IMG/VR virus record: IMGVR_UViG_3300044633_001982
DNA length: 64,000 nt
Origin: a virus
Taxonomy: Duplodnaviria; Caudoviricetes
Reading direction: 5' to 3' (one strand)
Positions 15,601 to 49,589 of this stretch are shown here, one piece after another; the first letter of the stretch is position 1; every line of letters starts with the position of its first letter. The notes beneath the pieces are model-generated. The model was not told where the DNA came from. It made no database searches and saw nothing but the letters and a program-made list of their open reading frames with translations. Both the position numbers and the translations under genes were made by a program.

Positions 15601-15619
15601 AAATTCATCTTCACAATAA
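9695..15619 (+). CDS. Giant tail fibre/spike with Gly/Ser/Asn/Cys beta-solenoid repeats and C-terminal Peptidase S74 intramolecular chaperone
   Basis: 1974 aa; ~15-aa repeats GGGxxNxxSxxYSTV. C-terminal SDLRRKINV...LKPVKFEYK...GFVAQD...DY plus coiled coil is the S74 signature (Ser codon at 15308). Confidence 0.85.
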   Translation: MSTFPYKNPISSEQLNGVQSVERSETFGTNFSVLGVGGYMEVFNLTDLVYTIPSATFGPIEYSGNTIPIQFTKGTGAVFSPDVLTLNSDNISSGRKRLGMLAYVYEDDQVYQFRIDNYESLWSAVTATTAITFYDFGTTINNTTVASQNFINAWTASTIEGVGGATHATAIWKKYGSTGSTSSASTLYITGTGINSTIRCGVNNTAAGDFGGALAGSGNTASGNYSFVGGGQGNTSSNYFSTIGGGGFHTSSGFYSTVGGGRCNTSSSYNSTVSGGYCNTSSSKYSTVGGGYKNNSSSKYSTVGGGVGNTASGYNSTVGGGVGNTASSYNSTVSGGYQNTSSSKYSTVSGGYQNTASGNNSTVGGGQGNTASSYYSTVGGGQGNTSSSEYSTVGGGKCNIVTGKGVCSSILGGNYNSVESQASSILGGLGNIVKSYAGNINGGVSNIIGKGITYSNLYCTNSGYNRVYLSGDVTALYPNGDTVQFFNNYDGNLIKGDITNSSYSGGYTCLDLSVNTGSNVYSTPIINLNNVGIYGCFNTINGGYVNSISSQYYATIGGGHTNCATGNGSTIGGGEDNESIGPVSTIGGGNGNTTNGNGSTIGGGSVNTANCFWSTIGGGNSNTATCDYSIVGGGYKNTSSGCYSSVLGGLINCASGNSSIIGGGKCNWANGGCATVSGGYKNYSNGPSSFIGGGQLNTGTSVNSVIAGGQVNCVTGSSGTIGGGYKNISYGDFSTISGGYFNCAVGGCSSILGGYKNNSCGTHSAVVGGTGNNAVGTCSFIGGGSSNSATGLTSTIGGGINNCAYGACSSVLGGKCNTSSGIYSTISGGYRNFSCGSYSSVVGGRFNTSSGIYSTISGGYRNIVSGCTSFIGGGTLNCSCGNQSSILNGQSNIITPSFANVTILNGSSNTGNTSNSVILAGCSNILSGASSKFAYTIIGNGCLNRVLGDTSNILNGFNNLVSSLGTFTTILNGCCNSACSISSTISGGYKNTTSGSYSFIGGGRNNTTSNIYGSIINGTGNTSSSVSSLIGNGIGNTVSSRYGSVINGICNLSQGASFNTITNGCLNNICGKTSCFSSIINGSGNTINTSTYSFIGNGSGNTLSANTTGSFISNGYNNIVSGCSSYIGNGNSNTISGNYSAIINAGKGFTYGGSIICGSHSTIISNNGNVGKCGGWICGDSNLIGNSTSSCIWRNTFSLQMNTNCSQIIDGNDKGCSYNQIIGGTNSFVCGSYATTVINGFGHQINNVTYGFVGNGSHVMGGHNNVTTSGYTSIINGNSNIICFSSHSFIGGGTSNRICGAAKNLTGVWSFIGSGFGNGTCGGTPDWNNLVFSPSGAVTQSSGTFSFIGNGFQNNTTGSGSTVVNGYCNYNNADWSFVGNGSGNTLNACYSTVVNGIGNCICNLAYYGSILVGSGNTNSGCYSTIVSGNRNNIVSRPSSFIGGGCCNIISANVSTFLITVVGGCCNIGSGGNSFIGAGSCNSNSGGTSFIGAGACNTVSSSYSSIVGGRGNTINTGSYSSILGGISNTVSGGYSAVLGGCGNTSSSKYSTIGGGCLNTNSSVAGFIGGGLRNSGLTGNYVTVVGGELNCTIGAWSFIGGGQCNRSCCSYSFIGGGQCNVISGQSTTIGGGFKNSACCDFAFLGGGYQGISNGCYSVLGGGLNNISCLFSTSVLGGANNSGHTSYSFIGGGICNAVTSGSDCSVINGGFCNRISNLNSFVGGGGCNSVTGQFSGIVGGSGNTVSSNFSFAAGCGLTASVACTFYSNNFCGTTSVNSPSFSGSVGTISGTKGSITISGSSVGALTTFCGSGTVGGASYIDFIRVTNNSGGATNPNKTFRVNGTGGLEVVNSTYGTIILSLTDAGVLSTPGGGTSDLRRKINVQYINDEITPHILNLKPVKFEYKDYSGTTRHGFVAQDVLIAYPELVLGDGEKEDGTYGLDYDGILSLTVKSLQETILRVEKLEKEIELLKNSSSQ
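10376..10880 (+). repeat. 45-bp (15-codon) near-identical tandem repeat array within the fibre gene
   Basis: For example caaggtaac recurs at 10793 and 10838; units share tcaaccgta(g/a)gtgg...aa(c/t)acc(t/g)caagt. Confidence 0.85.
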
Positions 15620-15638
15620 CTAATACATATTTTATATT
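15610..15638 (+). promoter_or_regulatory. Sigma70-like promoter TTCACA-N17-TATATT for the GT/SET/sulfotransferase cassette
   Basis: Exact 17-nt spacing; overlaps the fibre stop codon and lies 18 nt before the ATG at 15657. Confidence 0.5.
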
Positions 15639-15656
15639 TTAATCAAAGCTTTGATT

Positions 15657-16547
15657 ATGAATATAATTTTCCAAATTAATGGTGGTATAGGTAAATGTAT
15701 TTTGGCAACCGCAGTTACCGAAGTAATTAAAAAAAAATACCCAAATTCTAAACTTATTGTTGTCTCAGGATATCCTGATGTTTTCTTAAACAATCCACAT
15801 GTTGACCGAGCGTTTAATTTTGGTGAACATTCTTATTTTTATTCTGACTATATTGAAGATAAAGAATTCAAACTTTTGGCTCATGACCCATACCTTGAAA
15901 CTAACCATATTAATAAAACAGAACATTTAATTGAAACTTGGTGTAAACTATTTGATTTAGAATATAATGGTGAACAACCAAACATATATCTAACTGAGAG
16001 AGAGATTAATTTCTTTTCAAGAAAATACACAACTGATAAACCAATCATGGTTATTCAAACTAATGGAGGGGTTGAACAAAATTTGAAATACTCTTGGGCT
16101 CGTGACATTCCATTCCATATTGTTGAAAGTGTGATTGAAAAATTTAAATATGGTTACACTATTTTTCACCTGAAAAGAGAAGACCAACCATCTTTCGCTA
16201 ATACAATCCCTGTCACTGATACTTTTAGGTCAGTTGCAACTTTAATTGCGATAAGTAATAAAAGATTTTTTATGGATAGTTTTGGTCAACATGTTGCGGG
16301 AGCTCTAAAATTAGAATCCACAGTTTTGTGGATTGTTAACTCACCAAAAGTATTTGGATATGAAACAAATAAAAATATTGTTTCAAACCAATTCACAAAA
16401 AAACCAGAATTAAAAATGTCATATTTAAACAAGTTTAACATAATGGGAGAACCTTTGGAATTCCCATATAATGATGAGTTTGAAATGTTTGACATTGAGA
16501 ACATATTAAATTCTTTAAGTAACAATGAACATCCCGATACCAAATAA
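15657..16547 (+). CDS. GT9 (heptosyltransferase)-fold glycosyltransferase-like protein, copy A
   Basis: N-terminal GGIGK.....KYPNSKL.V...P.VF.NNP.VD and C-terminal DSFGQHVAGAL (GT9-like DS...H.A.A). ATG at 15657 preferred over TTG at 15651. Confidence 0.7.
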   Translation: MNIIFQINGGIGKCILATAVTEVIKKKYPNSKLIVVSGYPDVFLNNPHVDRAFNFGEHSYFYSDYIEDKEFKLLAHDPYLETNHINKTEHLIETWCKLFDLEYNGEQPNIYLTEREINFFSRKYTTDKPIMVIQTNGGVEQNLKYSWARDIPFHIVESVIEKFKYGYTIFHLKREDQPSFANTIPVTDTFRSVATLIAISNKRFFMDSFGQHVAGALKLESTVLWIVNSPKVFGYETNKNIVSNQFTKKPELKMSYLNKFNIMGEPLEFPYNDEFEMFDIENILNSLSNNEHPDTK

Positions 16548-16911
16548 AATTGAAGTGAAATCGTCCCCAATTCACGGATTTGGGGTTTTCGCGATTGAAA
16601 AAATATTAAAAGATGAAATAATTGAAACCTGTTATTCAATTTTTTTCAAAACAGATTTAGGGTCAAACGATGATATATTACTAAAATATCGTTTCTCATA
16701 TCCTTGTGGGGCATCTCCAATAAAGTACGCAATACCTCTTGGGTATGGGTGTATTTACAATCATAGTGATGATAATAATGCAACATGGACATGTGATTCA
16801 GATAATGGAATGTATTATTTTATTGCGGTTAAAGATATTGAGCCAGGTGAAGAAATTTGTACATCATATGGAAAAAAAGAATATTGGGAATCAGTAAAAA
16901 AAATATATTAA
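16525..16911 (+). CDS. SET-domain protein-lysine methyltransferase
   Basis: SPIHGFGVFA, YNHSDDNNA and DIEPGEEICTSYG are the SET motifs. Confidence 0.9.
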   Translation: MNIPIPNKIEVKSSPIHGFGVFAIEKILKDEIIETCYSIFFKTDLGSNDDILLKYRFSYPCGASPIKYAIPLGYGCIYNHSDDNNATWTCDSDNGMYYFIAVKDIEPGEEICTSYGKKEYWESVKKIY

Positions 16912-16913
16912 AA

Positions 16914-17738
16914 ATGGAAAGATTATTTTTTCAGAGTTCACTACCACGAGCAGGTAGTACTCTACTACAAAACATTTTAGCTCAAAACCCTGACATATAC
17001 GCAACACCAACAAGTGGTGTTTTAGAGTTAGTGTACGCGGCTAGAGCAAACTATAGTAATTCACCTGAATTCAAAGCTCAGGACCCTGAACTTATGAAAA
17101 ACGCATTTTTATCTTTTTGTAAAGAGGGGTTAACTGGTTTTTATGAAAGTATTACTGATAAAAAATATGTGGTTGATAAAAGTAGAGGATGGGGTGTCCA
17201 TTATGGATTTTTACAACAAATTGTTGATAAACCAAAAGTTGTTTGTATGGTGAGAGACCTTAGAGATATCTATACCTCTATGGAAAAAAACTTTAGAAAA
17301 AATCAGCACAAAGATTTTGGGATTGTAAATCATTCGGATTTGAAAGGAACATCAACACCTAAAAGAATAGACATATGGGCAAACTCACAACCTGTTGGTA
17401 TGGCGATTGAAAGACTACAAGAAATTTTCAGACAAGGTATTAATGAAAATATGATGTTTGTTAAGTATGAGGATTTATGTTTGTATCCCGATTTAATCAT
17501 GAGAAAAATTTATGAATATTTTGAAATACCTTATTTTGAACATGATTTTGAAAACATTGAACAAATAACAAAAGAAGATGATGAAGTGTATGGTATTTTT
17601 GGGGACCATAAGATAAAAAAGACTTTAGAGTTATTACCATCGGATGCTCAAAAAATTTTAGGTTCAGATATTTGTGATTGGATTTATAATAATTATGGGT
17701 GGTATAACGAGATTTTTAAGTACCCTAAAAATATGTAG
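16914..17738 (+). CDS. PAPS-dependent sulfotransferase (Sulfotransfer_3-like), copy A
   Basis: 5'-PSB loop SLPRAGSTLL and 3'-PB motif VRDLRDIYTS; ATG at 16914 is the likely start. Confidence 0.88.
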   Translation: MERLFFQSSLPRAGSTLLQNILAQNPDIYATPTSGVLELVYAARANYSNSPEFKAQDPELMKNAFLSFCKEGLTGFYESITDKKYVVDKSRGWGVHYGFLQQIVDKPKVVCMVRDLRDIYTSMEKNFRKNQHKDFGIVNHSDLKGTSTPKRIDIWANSQPVGMAIERLQEIFRQGINENMMFVKYEDLCLYPDLIMRKIYEYFEIPYFEHDFENIEQITKEDDEVYGIFGDHKIKKTLELLPSDAQKILGSDICDWIYNNYGWYNEIFKYPKNM

Positions 17739-46352: not shown

Positions 46353-46383
46353 CAAATATAATAAAAAAAATTAATTTACCAAA
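46353..46383 (-). promoter_or_regulatory. Bacteroidota primary-sigma promoter TTTG-N19-TATATTTG
   Basis: Perfect match upstream of the exported-protein gene. Confidence 0.7.
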
Positions 46384-47249
46384 CTAATCAATTTATTAAT
46401 ATCAAACATTTCGTCAATAGACATATAAGGACATTCATGATTTGGACCTTCAAATGAATAGTCAAAAAGATATGAGTCAATTAACTTAACTGTATCAGTT
46501 GGTAACTTTGGTGATATATTATTATGTATACTATATCCAAAATTATTTGGTGATGTTCCTACCCATATAACATTAGATTTAAGATTTAGAGCTGCCGCAG
46601 CATGTTGTAAACATGAGTCAATTAACACCCTTTTGTCTGATGATAAAATGATTAAACATAAATCAACTGCGGACAATTCATAATCAATAACTTCGGCATT
46701 TGGAAGTTGTCTTGATGATTTTTTACAAATTTGAATTATATGGTGTGTTTCACTAAATTTATTAGCAATTGATGATGACACATCAAATGGGATATCTCTG
46801 GTCCATGAATAAGATTGATTTGAATTAAACGCGCCCCCATTTGTTTGAATGAGTAATATTGGTTTTTCTCTTTGCCATTTAGACAATGAACGTTTTTGAG
46901 AAATATTTAAACTAATACTTGGTGTTTGATTGGTATACTCAATCCCGAGTAAGTCACACCAATTTTCAATTAGATGTGATTTTTTAAGTATATGATTTGT
47001 TTGATAATATGGTTCTTGTCGAAAGATTATTGTGTCTTTATCTTTAATATAATCATCATAAAAATATTGAGTGGTACCTAATTTGTATACTCTATAAACT
47101 GAAGAATGGTTTAAGAATACTTCAGGGTATGAGGCGACTACTACAATTTTTCTGTCTTCGTATTTCTCTTTTAATGATGTTAATAGAGACGTGGCGGCAA
47201 TGTTTTTACCCAATCCTCCCTGTATGTGCCAAACAATATATTTTTCCAT
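46371..47249 (-). CDS. GT9-fold glycosyltransferase-like protein, copy B
   Basis: GGLGK, DSCLQHAAAAL; shares long motifs with 15657..16547 (YPxVFLN, TNHIxKxxHLIExWC, IQTNGG, YSWxRDIP). ATG at 47249. Confidence 0.7.
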   Translation of the reverse strand: MEKYIVWHIQGGLGKNIAATSLLTSLKEKYEDRKIVVVASYPEVFLNHSSVYRVYKLGTTQYFYDDYIKDKDTIIFRQEPYYQTNHILKKSHLIENWCDLLGIEYTNQTPSISLNISQKRSLSKWQREKPILLIQTNGGAFNSNQSYSWTRDIPFDVSSSIANKFSETHHIIQICKKSSRQLPNAEVIDYELSAVDLCLIILSSDKRVLIDSCLQHAAAALNLKSNVIWVGTSPNNFGYSIHNNISPKLPTDTVKLIDSYLFDYSFEGPNHECPYMSIDEMFDINKLISLVN

Positions 47250-47250
47250 A

Positions 47251-47694
47251 TTAATTTTTAGAACCAATTCTTATAAATTTATACCATACTCTTTCGTGGA
47301 AGAAATAAACAATTGGTTTAAGTAACAATTCTCCCACACCTAATAACGATGATAACTCAATTGATGCCCCCAATGAGTACGCAACTCCTACGGTAATTAA
47401 AGTACCTAAAATTCTGTAAGATATTGTTTTTAAAATATGTCTGGTTAATACCGATTCTTGTTTAACTGTTGTTATATATGCTACAGTGTTTTTAATCTCA
47501 CAGTGACCCTCACAACTGATATGCCATTTATATTCGTTTAATTCAGGTATCCAGTCTTTAGTAGTATAAGTGTGACCATCAACAACAATATCAGAAACTA
47601 AAATTTCAGAACCATTCTCAATCAATCTCCATCTATCACATTCATTAGTTGAGTGAGTGTTAAATCTTATTTGAAATGTTTTAATTTTTTTCAT
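47251..47694 (-). CDS. Small beta-domain fused to DUF2061-like membrane domain
   Basis: C-terminal KTISYRILGT...ELLLKPIVYFFHERVW matches the DUF2061 pattern. Confidence 0.7.
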   Translation of the reverse strand: MKKIKTFQIRFNTHSTNECDRWRLIENGSEILVSDIVVDGHTYTTKDWIPELNEYKWHISCEGHCEIKNTVAYITTVKQESVLTRHILKTISYRILGTLITVGVAYSLGASIELSSLLGVGELLLKPIVYFFHERVWYKFIRIGSKN

Positions 47695-48089
47695 AGTTTA
47701 CCTTCCAATTTCATTTGTTCTCTTATTTTAGTTGCAGAAATATCGTGTATTTCTTGAGGGGGAATTCTTTCAATAATATCATACCCAACACCTCTACCAA
47801 ATTCTATTGAACATATATCAGGTATTACCATCACTTTAACTCTATCACTCAATTCAGAATAGTGTGACTCAATATTACTCTTAACTTCTTGAGCGGTGAA
47901 TGGATTTTTTTCATCAGGTTCAATGTCTCTGATACAAATCAATACATTCTTACCTTCATCCATCGCTTGTTTAAATAACTCTTGGTGTCCTTTATGTAGT
48001 GGTTGCCATCTACCGACAAACATTGCAAATTGTCCATCTTTTGGTTTCAAAGATGACTGAACGTGAACTTTTTTATCCCAGTTACTCAT
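47691..48089 (-). CDS. HIGH-motif nucleotidyltransferase (cytidylyltransferase-like); candidate minimal ATP sulfurylase
   Basis: GRWQPLHKGH and ISATKIRE motifs; overlaps cysC. Confidence 0.75.
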   Translation of the reverse strand: MSNWDKKVHVQSSLKPKDGQFAMFVGRWQPLHKGHQELFKQAMDEGKNVLICIRDIEPDEKNPFTAQEVKSNIESHYSELSDRVKVMVIPDICSIEFGRGVGYDIIERIPPQEIHDISATKIREQMKLEGKL

Positions 48090-48514
48090 TTTTTATTAAA
48101 AGGTATTAAATCAAGACATTCGTCTATAGTTTTATTTGTTGTGTCAATATCAATAAAGTTTTCAGTTGGTTGTTCATACTCCTTAACAAAGTTTTGTTCT
48201 CTACCTCTGATTTCACTTGTGTGAACATAGATTTCACAAACTTCATTAGTTTCTTTTAATGAGTCCCTCATTCTTTTATAAGGAGCAACAACAGAAATTA
48301 CAACTGTAAATCCCTTGTGGTCTAAAAAACGAGCCAAATCAACAACAGATTGGATATTTTTAATTCTACCTTCAGGTGAATAATCAAAGTTTTGAAATAA
48401 CTCCCTCAAACCATCTCCATCAACATTAATACAATTATCTGAACACTTCTCAATTAAAGCATTCGCCAATGTTGTTTTTCCTGAGCCAGGTTGACCTGTG
48501 AACCAATAAATCAT
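48086..48514 (-). CDS. cysC: Adenylyl-sulfate (APS) kinase
   Basis: WFTGQPGSGKTT, VDGD.LR, DYSPEGRIKN, VISVVAPY. Confidence 0.88.
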   Translation of the reverse strand: MIYWFTGQPGSGKTTLANALIEKCSDNCINVDGDGLRELFQNFDYSPEGRIKNIQSVVDLARFLDHKGFTVVISVVAPYKRMRDSLKETNEVCEIYVHTSEIRGREQNFVKEYEQPTENFIDIDTTNKTIDECLDLIPFNKK

Positions 48515-48768
48515 AGTTGTGTATAAGTTTTACCTGATTGAATCGTATCGTTTATTTCCGTTAATTGAGTTTCAGTTAATGCTGACATAAACCAATCTTT
48601 ACTTTTCATAACTTCTAAATGTTTGTAATTTCTCTCGACTGTAGTTTTTTTAACTTCAATTTTTTCTGTTGGTAATTTAGAACCATCAATAATTCCATTT
48701 ATTAGTGTCACCGAATTAAAGGCTGAATTAATTGATTTAGTTGGGTTTGGTATTTCATCGTTTTCCAT
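48511..48768 (-). CDS. Small fibre-associated (assembly chaperone-like) protein
   Basis: SVTLIN.II...VERNYKHLEVM..KDW...I..GK.Y resembles, from memory, a small family found next to phage tail fibre genes; unverified. Confidence 0.45.
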   Translation of the reverse strand: MENDEIPNPTKSINSAFNSVTLINGIIDGSKLPTEKIEVKKTTVERNYKHLEVMKSKDWFMSALTETQLTEINDTIQSGKTYTQL

Positions 48769-48773
48769 AAAGC

Positions 48774-49589
48774 TTATTTATAATTAAATTTATTGAAGAA
48801 CCAATTATAGTGTTCGTATAATCTATTACTATTATCAGCACCTAATATTTCGTTATAATCTTCTTTTGGTTGAGATAATGTATTTTTTATTGAGTGGTCA
48901 CCAAAAATTCCGTGTATGACATCATTTTCAATAGTTAACTGCTCAATATTATTAAAGTCGTGTTGATAAAAAGGTATCTCCAAATAATCGTAAATCCGTT
49001 TTAACTCTTTATCAGGATTTGATGTTAGGTCTTCAAATCTAACAAAAAGAATATCTTTGTCATATCCTTGGTGAATTGACTCAAATAACCATTCTAATGA
49101 TGGACCAATTGGGGGAGATATTGAAAAATGGTCAACTCTTGATGTTGTTGTCATATTTTTTAATTCATTGACATTTACTAATAGAGGGTCTTTATGTGAA
49201 TTTTTTCTATAGTTTTTTTCCATTGAAGAGAAAATTGCCCTTAGGTCCCTAACCATACAAATAATTTTAGGTGTCCCGTAAAACCACTTTAAGAAATGAT
49301 AGTTACCTATCCACGCTCTACTCTTATCAATAACATAGGGTCTATCAGTTATGTTATCGAAAAAACCCGTTAAACCTTTTTCACAAAAACTTTTTAATCC
49401 CTCTCTCATTTCATCAGGATTTTGTGCTTTAAATGCGTCACCTGTTGTATATATGGTTCTAGCTTGTAAAAGTAGCTCAATCACTCCTGAAGTTGGTGTT
49501 GAATAAATTTCAGGATTTTGCATTAATATGTTTTGAATTAATGTTGACCCTGCTCTTGGTAATGATGCGTTAAAAAATATTTTCTTCAT
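48774..49589 (-). CDS. PAPS-dependent sulfotransferase, copy B
   Basis: SLPRAGSTL and VRDLRAIFSS; clearly paralogous to 16914..17738 (TPTSGV, FKAQ.P, EGLTGF, DKSR.W, GIFGDH). Confidence 0.88.
   Translation of the reverse strand: MKKIFFNASLPRAGSTLIQNILMQNPEIYSTPTSGVIELLLQARTIYTTGDAFKAQNPDEMREGLKSFCEKGLTGFFDNITDRPYVIDKSRAWIGNYHFLKWFYGTPKIICMVRDLRAIFSSMEKNYRKNSHKDPLLVNVNELKNMTTTSRVDHFSISPPIGPSLEWLFESIHQGYDKDILFVRFEDLTSNPDKELKRIYDYLEIPFYQHDFNNIEQLTIENDVIHGIFGDHSIKNTLSQPKEDYNEILGADNSNRLYEHYNWFFNKFNYK

Follow-up and report, generated by a model that had tools for sequence, protein, structure and literature searches.

Genes and motifs of the phage cassette

The window, a stretch of 64,000 nucleotides from an IMG/VR virus record, comes from a large phage, as judged by its other genes. 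Its minus strand carries a run of genes in the order sulfotransferase, 85-aa ORF, APS-kinase homologue (cysC), HxGH nucleotidyltransferase (hereafter NT), DUF2061 protein and 298-aa ORF. The genes of this run and the motifs of NT are the following:

48774-49589, minus strand: 271-aa PAPS-type sulfotransferase (PF13469, 65.9 bits; PF00685, 45.6 bits)
48511-48768, minus strand: 85-aa ORF between the sulfotransferase gene and cysC (no Pfam or PHROG match)
48086-48514, minus strand: APS-kinase homologue of 142 aa, in the short form that lacks the lid insert; shares ATGA with NT (PF01583, TIGR00455)
47691-48089, minus strand: 132-aa HxGH nucleotidyltransferase (NT), candidate ATP sulfurylase (PF01467, AF2 model, family alignment)
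47985-48014, minus strand: GRWQPLHKGH, ATP-binding HxGH motif of NT, residues 26-35 (aligned to the NMN adenylyltransferase, NMNAT, of M. thermoautotrophicum)
47925-47930, minus strand: R54-D55, family-specific conserved pair after strand 2 of NT (Gly-Ser at this place in the NMNAT; R54 in 82/83 loci)
47781-47798, minus strand: GRGVGY loop, signature of the NT family, residues 98-103 (family alignment, AF2 model)
47718-47741, minus strand: ISATKIRE, the superfamily ISxTxxR motif, which binds the beta and gamma phosphates, residues 117-124 (R123 invariant)
47251-47694, minus strand: 147-aa protein that has DUF2061 at its C-terminus and shares ATGA with NT (PF09834, 55.6 bits)
46371-47267, minus strand: 298-aa ORF, the final gene of the run (phrog_8954, function unknown; no Pfam match)

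The initial annotation had described NT as a reading frame with an HxGH motif, a GRGVGY loop and an ISATKIRE segment, translationally coupled to cysC. The frame, which begins with ATG, and the three motifs, which we checked against the DNA, were all found in place, and the stop codon of cysC and the start codon of NT indeed share the ATGA at 48086-48089. The stop codon of NT and the start codon of the DUF2061 gene share another ATGA (47691-47694). The upstream gene was identified as an APS-kinase homologue by its matches to PF01583 (68 bits) and TIGR00455 (77.6 bits), and its best match in the PDB was the adenylyl-sulfate kinase 7yq0 (E 8e-18). Prediction of a complex between the APS kinase and NT returned a score of 0.00 ('no answer') and points neither way. 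A copy with 97% identity was present on a 185-kb IMG/VR contig, and a blastn comparison of the cassette with INPHARED phages gave no match. A second sulfotransferase cassette was noted in the window at 15610-17738.

NT matched 7536 database proteins of near-equal length at E≤1e-3, as well as 1288 clusters at 50% identity, and it is therefore not a chance ORF. The viral carriers of the family comprised at least 594 IMG/VR contigs and the cellular ones at least 555 genomes of the GTDB species set; for the search of cellular loci, a 14-row family alignment served as the query. The names given to family members in public databases are generic ('cytidyltransferase-like', 'hypothetical', 'phosphopantetheine adenylyltransferase'). 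We found no description of the family or of its proposed activity in the literature when searching for small or novel ATP sulfurylases and for fusions of a nucleotidyltransferase with APS kinase.

Fold, conserved residues and placement in the superfamily

NT scored above the cut-offs of two general models of the cytidylyltransferase-like HxGH superfamily, PF01467 (33.6 bits, cut-off 21) and TIGR00125 (35.2, cut-off 27.7), and carries the superfamily motifs H32-K-G-H35 after strand 1 and I117-S-A-T-K-I-R123 near the C-terminus. The AlphaFold model, built with 67 diverse relatives, had a pLDDT of 94.6 and displayed a five-stranded Rossmann-like core with only 20 residues ahead of strand 1. The models of individual enzyme families were not matched at their cut-offs: NT reached 39 of 127 bits for NF002243 and 33 of 181.2 bits for TIGR01527 (both NadM-type NMNAT), 24.4 of 103.3 bits for TIGR01510 (PPAT) and 17 of 24.3 bits for PF01747 (Sat), the last over the 24 residues 29-52 only. 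CysD (TIGR02039) was absent among the NCBIfam and Pfam matches of NT.

The likeness of the GRxQPxHxGH motif to that of NMN adenylyltransferases, to which the initial annotation had drawn attention, was borne out: NadM NMNATs ranked first among the matches of NT in NCBIfam, among PDB sequences and in Foldseek. When the family profile was compared with the PDB, NadM NMNATs came first (E 2e-13, profile positions 10-80 only) and PPAT next, and Sat was absent among the best 60 matches. At the level of fold, PPAT and NadM NMNAT tied for the top place in VIA-align (Z ~10, rmsd ~3 Å, ~112 residues), the top match being the PPAT 5ts2 (Z 10.5, rmsd 3.0 Å, 113 residues). Most Foldseek alignments spanned just 73-80 residues at low rmsd, that is, the ATP-binding half. 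In the structural comparison of NT with Sat and NadM that had been proposed, NadM NMNAT and PPAT were matched at Z ~10; a Sat chain did not occur among the best 50 fold matches listed by VIA-align or among those listed by Foldseek, an absence that is compatible with structural similarity.

The NadM NMNATs (1F9A, 1EJ2, 2QJT), the nearest relatives of NT in sequence, have GRxQPxHxGH, an NPFT segment and ISxTxxR in common with it and resemble it in fold (VIA-align Z 9.8-10.1, rmsd ~3 Å, 110-112 residues). The sequence match, however, is confined to the N-terminal ~70 residues of NT (residues ~22-90). Within it, R27, H32 and H35 correspond to R11, H16 and H19 in the NMNAT of M. thermoautotrophicum, for which the titles of PDB entries record crystal structures of mutants at R11, H19 and R136. 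NT has neither the NMN-binding insert nor the C-terminal helices of NadM, and carries the GRxVGY loop instead. PPAT (CoaD), although it provides the top fold matches, is only ~18-20% identical to NT, which does not possess the pantetheine-binding half. Between strands 4 and 5, where NMNAT and PPAT carry acceptor-binding helices, NT has an irregular 15-residue loop containing GRxVGY, and its residues 90-104 are without regular secondary structure in the AlphaFold model.

In the family alignments, G26, R27, H35, P63, G98, G102 and R123 were invariant, and H32, G34, R54, N62, P90, R99, V101, Y103, I117, S118 and T120 nearly so; conservation of R99, V101 and Y103 was at least 90%. The catalytic and signature residues were identical in cysC-linked, apr-linked and lone copies. 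NT is thus a NadM/PPAT-like ATP-binding core joined to a new, very small acceptor side rich in Gly and Arg, in which we infer that the GRxVGY loop is the sulfate site.

Since only the ATP-binding half matches NMNAT and PPAT and the family-specific models fail, the core reads as NadM/PPAT-like and not as a cut-down Sat. The description of NT as a 'stripped catalytic domain' of Sat is therefore not supported, given the low PF01747 score, the absence of Sat among the best 60 PDB profile matches and the Z of ~10 for PPAT and NMNAT, and the family would be an independent invention. The word 'minimal' is apt with respect to Sat, of which NT has about one third of the size, but for the superfamily such a size is ordinary. 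TagD of B. subtilis has ~129 residues, and a length of ~130 residues is not unusually small among HxGH enzymes.

APS kinases, sulfotransferases and APS reductase as genomic partners

Natural fusions with CysC, the search for which had been suggested together with the original claim, were found in abundance: 37 of the 56 long family representatives contained an APS_kinase domain. In some of these proteins, the kinase is canonical and covers the full Pfam model (234.6 bits in P0155, 191.3 bits in P0160), and a single PHROG profile, phrog_10255, covers both the CysC and the NT halves. With custom HMMs, a cysC homologue was detected as a fusion partner or directly upstream of NT in 63 of 80 cellular loci, and the order was cysC then NT in 62 of these 63, L033 being the exception. 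In the viral loci, cysC lay within 5 kb of NT in 79/80 cases and was directly adjacent in 66 of the 77 loci that could be tested. Alignment of the partners, which are predicted APS kinases, distinguished three forms. The canonical one has a lid insert of 14 residues, which is missing from the short one found in the window, in phages and in many Marinimicrobia; the third, that of SAR11, is diverged and has NAD in place of the DGD motif.

In some phages, cysC and NT are separated by 0.4-1 kb, or NT is called as a protein of 278-431 aa (P0139, P0132, P0137, P0128; viral loci L101, L102, L107, L111, L113, L115, L117, L139, L147 and L155). A degenerate CysC was considered for the first 160-208 residues of the 'long' homologues of 278-326 aa, and this assignment was rejected at an hhalign probability below 1%. 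At least one long homologue has NUMOD3 homing-endonuclease motifs in its N-terminal part, which suggests mobile endonuclease insertions inside some phage cassettes.

Sulfotransferases are recurrent neighbours as well. A homologue was encoded within 5 kb of NT in 46/80 viral loci, and PF13469 was found in 26 of 35 diverse carrier genomes. Sulfotransferases adjoin the cellular fusions in L003-L005, and in L025 a sulfotransferase match was obtained for an 846-aa protein encoded 2 kb away from the fusion. Genes for capsule and polysaccharide (Wzi, Wzx, Wzz) occur near NT in Marinimicrobia and Flavobacteriales. The DUF2061 gene recurs as a third member of the phage cassettes, behind NT, and was found near NT in 61/80 viral loci; it adjoins the CysC-NT fusion in L001 (9031-9483) and was also seen in L006, L007 and L012, and the nodH-nodPQ sulfation locus of Mesorhizobium holds a DUF2061 gene as well. 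The DUF2061 protein of the window has an extra N-terminal domain of ~85 aa, and a Kyte-Doolittle scan of it revealed no strong transmembrane segment, while the Pfam label reads 'predicted membrane protein'. A literature search for the function of DUF2061 returned nothing relevant. A homologue of the 298-aa ORF was present within 5 kb of NT in 40/80 viral loci.

Two contigs from metagenome-assembled genomes (MAGs), one of Ignavibacteria (L007) and one of Flavobacteriaceae (L012), carry a near-identical full phage cassette (298-aa ORF, sulfotransferases, cysC, NT and DUF2061), and probably represent prophages, or else phage contigs that ended up in these MAGs through binning. Neighbours of ~590 aa in CPR, Marinimicrobia and Acidobacteriota loci were considered as SulP sulfate permeases, but turned out to be NUDIX-domain proteins, M1 peptidases or an ABC ATPase. 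In two of the CPR loci, from Nomurabacteria (L019:3362-5236) and Saccharibacteria (L024:5682-7460), a protein of ~600 aa with a C-terminal NUDIX domain directly precedes the CysC-NT fusion. This neighbour recalls NadM-Nudix fusions, but here it stands beside a PAPS module.

In part of SAR11, NT is found without cysC as the first gene of an operon NT-aprM-aprB-aprA-(116 aa)-tauE. In the single-cell genome AG-325-J13 (L065:7938-13095), the operon begins with NT and a 267-aa protein in which four hydrophobic segments were seen, followed by AprB, AprA, the 116-aa ORF and TauE, and the same arrangement was seen in L039, L041, L045, L055, L061, L077, L081, L083 and L085. In L053 and L055, cysC, NT, aprM and aprB form one run. 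In sulfur oxidisers, sat sits beside aprMBA, and this is the position occupied by NT in the SAR11 apr operon. Lineage-I aprBA, that of Pelagibacter included, is always preceded by the membrane gene aprM (PMC2211403). One Pelagibacter genome, HIMB1483 (L044:6503-10936), has a lone NT, no APS kinase and aprA elsewhere; there, NT is flanked by a Rieske oxygenase gene and by GFA, enoyl-CoA hydratase, CoA-binding and YeeE/YedE-like sulfur-transport genes.

The distribution of NT was then set against that of the known sulfurylases; many of the genomes that carry NT are incomplete assemblies from single cells or metagenomes. Among 35 diverse NT carriers, Sat (PF01747) was detected in two and CysD (TIGR02039) in three. 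Most SAR11 have been reported to be without ATP sulfurylase (PMC10356861), and of 121 Pelagibacteraceae genomes 71 had NT, 60 AprA and 5 Sat (PF01747). NT and AprA were found together in 59 of these genomes, NT only in 12, AprA only in 1 and neither in 49 (Fisher test, 4e-21, over 121 genomes whose relatedness makes them non-independent). In the single genome with AprA only, aprA lies ~2 kb from a contig end. No anticorrelation between Sat and NT was found in the 121 genomes, among which Sat is rare and four of the five Sat-positive ones also have NT. For Marinimicrobia, the profile was drawn at the level of one family, because a phylum-wide sample with only 3 carriers in 101 genomes was too small for the purpose. 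Among the 38 genomes of this family, NT was present in 20, APS kinase in 21, and Sat and CysD in none. All 20 genomes with NT had an adjacent APS kinase, and the one remaining kinase, which stands without NT, is truncated by the start of its contig.

Proposed reaction and alternative readings

APS kinase consumes APS, and APS reductase makes or consumes it, so that APS is the sole specific metabolite that the partners of NT have in common. On this ground, ATP:sulfate adenylyltransferase is the best reading of NT; it is also the simplest one, because carriers with ties to APS kinase and APS reductase are found without another means of interconverting sulfate and APS. We consider it likely that NT is a minimal ATP sulfurylase of a previously unrecognised family. 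The original proposal of a distinct small class of APS-forming sulfurylases is thus strongly supported by the fusions, the gene order, the link with APS reductase and the carriers without Sat or CysDN, though not as regards descent from Sat, and the activity itself is predicted from context.

In the mechanism that we propose, the NadM/PPAT-like HxGH Rossmann core would hold MgATP through R27, H32, H35 and S118/T120/R123, and the short Gly-rich loop G98-R99-G-V-G-Y103, aided by R54, would hold sulfate. Sulfate would attack the alpha-phosphate in line to give APS and PPi, and the coupled APS kinase would pull this unfavourable reaction forward to PAPS. In the phage, PAPS would then feed the sulfotransferases that it encodes, the target of sulfation probably being a glycan or the neighbouring fibre. 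NT would work forward in PAPS synthesis and in reverse in sulfite oxidation. A small anion as the acceptor would be in keeping with the exchange of a large acceptor pocket for a small Arg/Gly loop. The same chemistry is performed on the same superfamily scaffold by Sat.

The two sulfate-activating systems already described differ from NT in distinct ways. Sat has the same proposed reaction, belongs to the same broad HxGH/HxxH superfamily and is fused to APS kinase in PAPS synthase, but NT has no family-level homology to it and no PUA-like domain. The motifs of Sat are QxRNPxHxxH and GRDHAG, whereas NT carries HxGH (GRWQPLHKGH) and GRGVGY. CysD/CysN (NodP/NodQ) yields the same proposed product, APS, and resides in the same kind of neighbourhood, with cysC, a sulfotransferase and DUF2061 as in nodH-nodPQ. 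Its fold, a PAPS-reductase-like ATP pyrophosphatase combined with a GTPase, is unrelated to that of NT, the GTPase partner is absent here, and CysD is missing from nearly all NT carriers. In pathway logic, NT and its kinase have a parallel in PPAT and dephospho-CoA kinase, where the product of an HxGH adenylyltransferase is passed to a P-loop kinase acting on the adenosine 3'-OH; the kinase partner of NT, however, belongs to the APS-kinase family and not to CoaE.

Against the sulfurylase reading stand the nearest characterised enzymes, which by sequence and fold are NMN adenylyltransferases and PPAT, the few genomes in which NT coexists with Sat or CysD, and the capacity of AprBA, in SAR11, to provide cysC with APS by itself. 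We weighed three other readings. According to the first, which we regard as unlikely, NT activates some other small anion or phosphoester (to NMP-X), which the CysC-like kinase then phosphorylates at the 3' position, in the manner of the CDP-phosphoramidate 3'-phosphate of C. jejuni. Cj1415 from that organism is a CysC homologue, and the CysC-like partners in phages and SAR11 are short or diverged, without the lid insert. The C. jejuni pathway requires Cj1415 to Cj1418, and in it a nucleotidyltransferase (Cj1416, likened to NT by its description) activates a small tetrahedral anion before a 3'-kinase acts, as proposed for NT (PMC11800397). It uses CTP and phosphoramidate, however, together with a glutamine kinase and a hydrolase, and no gene of the glutamine-kinase or amidohydrolase type is present in the operon of the window. 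Moreover, some family members have a fully canonical APS kinase as fusion partner, canonical and short kinase partners go with identical signature residues in NT, aprMBA is an APS-specific operon, and the neighbouring sulfotransferases are of the PAPS type.

A second, quite improbable reading is that NT uses APS in another way, for example for the APS-dependent adenylylation of a different acceptor, or that it assists APS-handling enzymes in a regulatory or non-catalytic role, such as that of an APS/PAPS sensor. What the genomic contexts share is indeed APS and not sulfate as such, and the few genomes that have both NT and Sat or CysD would agree with such a role. However, the catalytic residues of an NTP-using superfamily are invariant or nearly so in the NT family, and carriers of cysC without AprBA, Sat and CysD, of which the Marinimicrobia family is an example, would be left with no APS to draw on. 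Finally, it is very improbable that NT is a NadM-type NMN (or NaMN) adenylyltransferase, a phage NAD-salvage auxiliary gene that merely happens to lie beside cysC: NadM proteins are its best matches, GRxQPxHxGH is their motif and phages do carry NMNATs (NT matches phrog_3462 weakly), but the scores are far under the NMNAT cut-offs, the NMN-binding half is replaced by the GRxVGY loop, and the genomic partners (APS-kinase fusions, the apr operon, sulfotransferases) are APS and not NAD enzymes and are left unexplained by NAD metabolism. All three alternatives account less well than a sulfurylase for the fusions with canonical kinases, the apr operon and the sulfotransferases.

To our knowledge, only two kinds of enzymes that activate sulfate are known, Sat and CysDN. 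We favour, with moderate confidence, the view that the NT family constitutes a third class of ATP sulfurylase with an evolutionary origin of its own, a single domain of ~115 residues derived from a NadM/PPAT-like core, which supplies APS for PAPS in large phages, Marinimicrobia, CPR bacteria and others and, working in reverse, is the 'missing Sat' of sulfite oxidation by SAR11 AprBA. The reaction and the superfamily are known; what would be new, if the sulfurylase reading, which we take to be probable, is right, is an independent and much smaller enzyme family. A third, tiny sulfate activator would alter the reading of sulfur metabolism from genomes, since the capacity to activate sulfate may exist in organisms that are at present scored as lacking it. 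It would close the gap in SAR11, the most abundant bacteria of the ocean, which have APS reductase but in most cases no ATP sulfurylase, and would make ATP-yielding sulfite oxidation directly testable there. It would likewise explain the orphan APS kinases and sulfotransferases of Marinimicrobia, CPR bacteria and others, and would mean that many large freshwater and marine phages have a complete private route from sulfate through PAPS to a sulfated product. A sulfurylase of 13-15 kDa could also serve in enzymatic PAPS regeneration.

The sole locus with the reversed gene order, an NT-CysC fusion in an Acidobacteriota MAG (L033:5120-8256), is divergently adjoined by a cysD homologue with a 415-aa ORF beside it. 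Two putative sulfate-activating systems therefore stand side by side in this locus, and NT would be redundant there.
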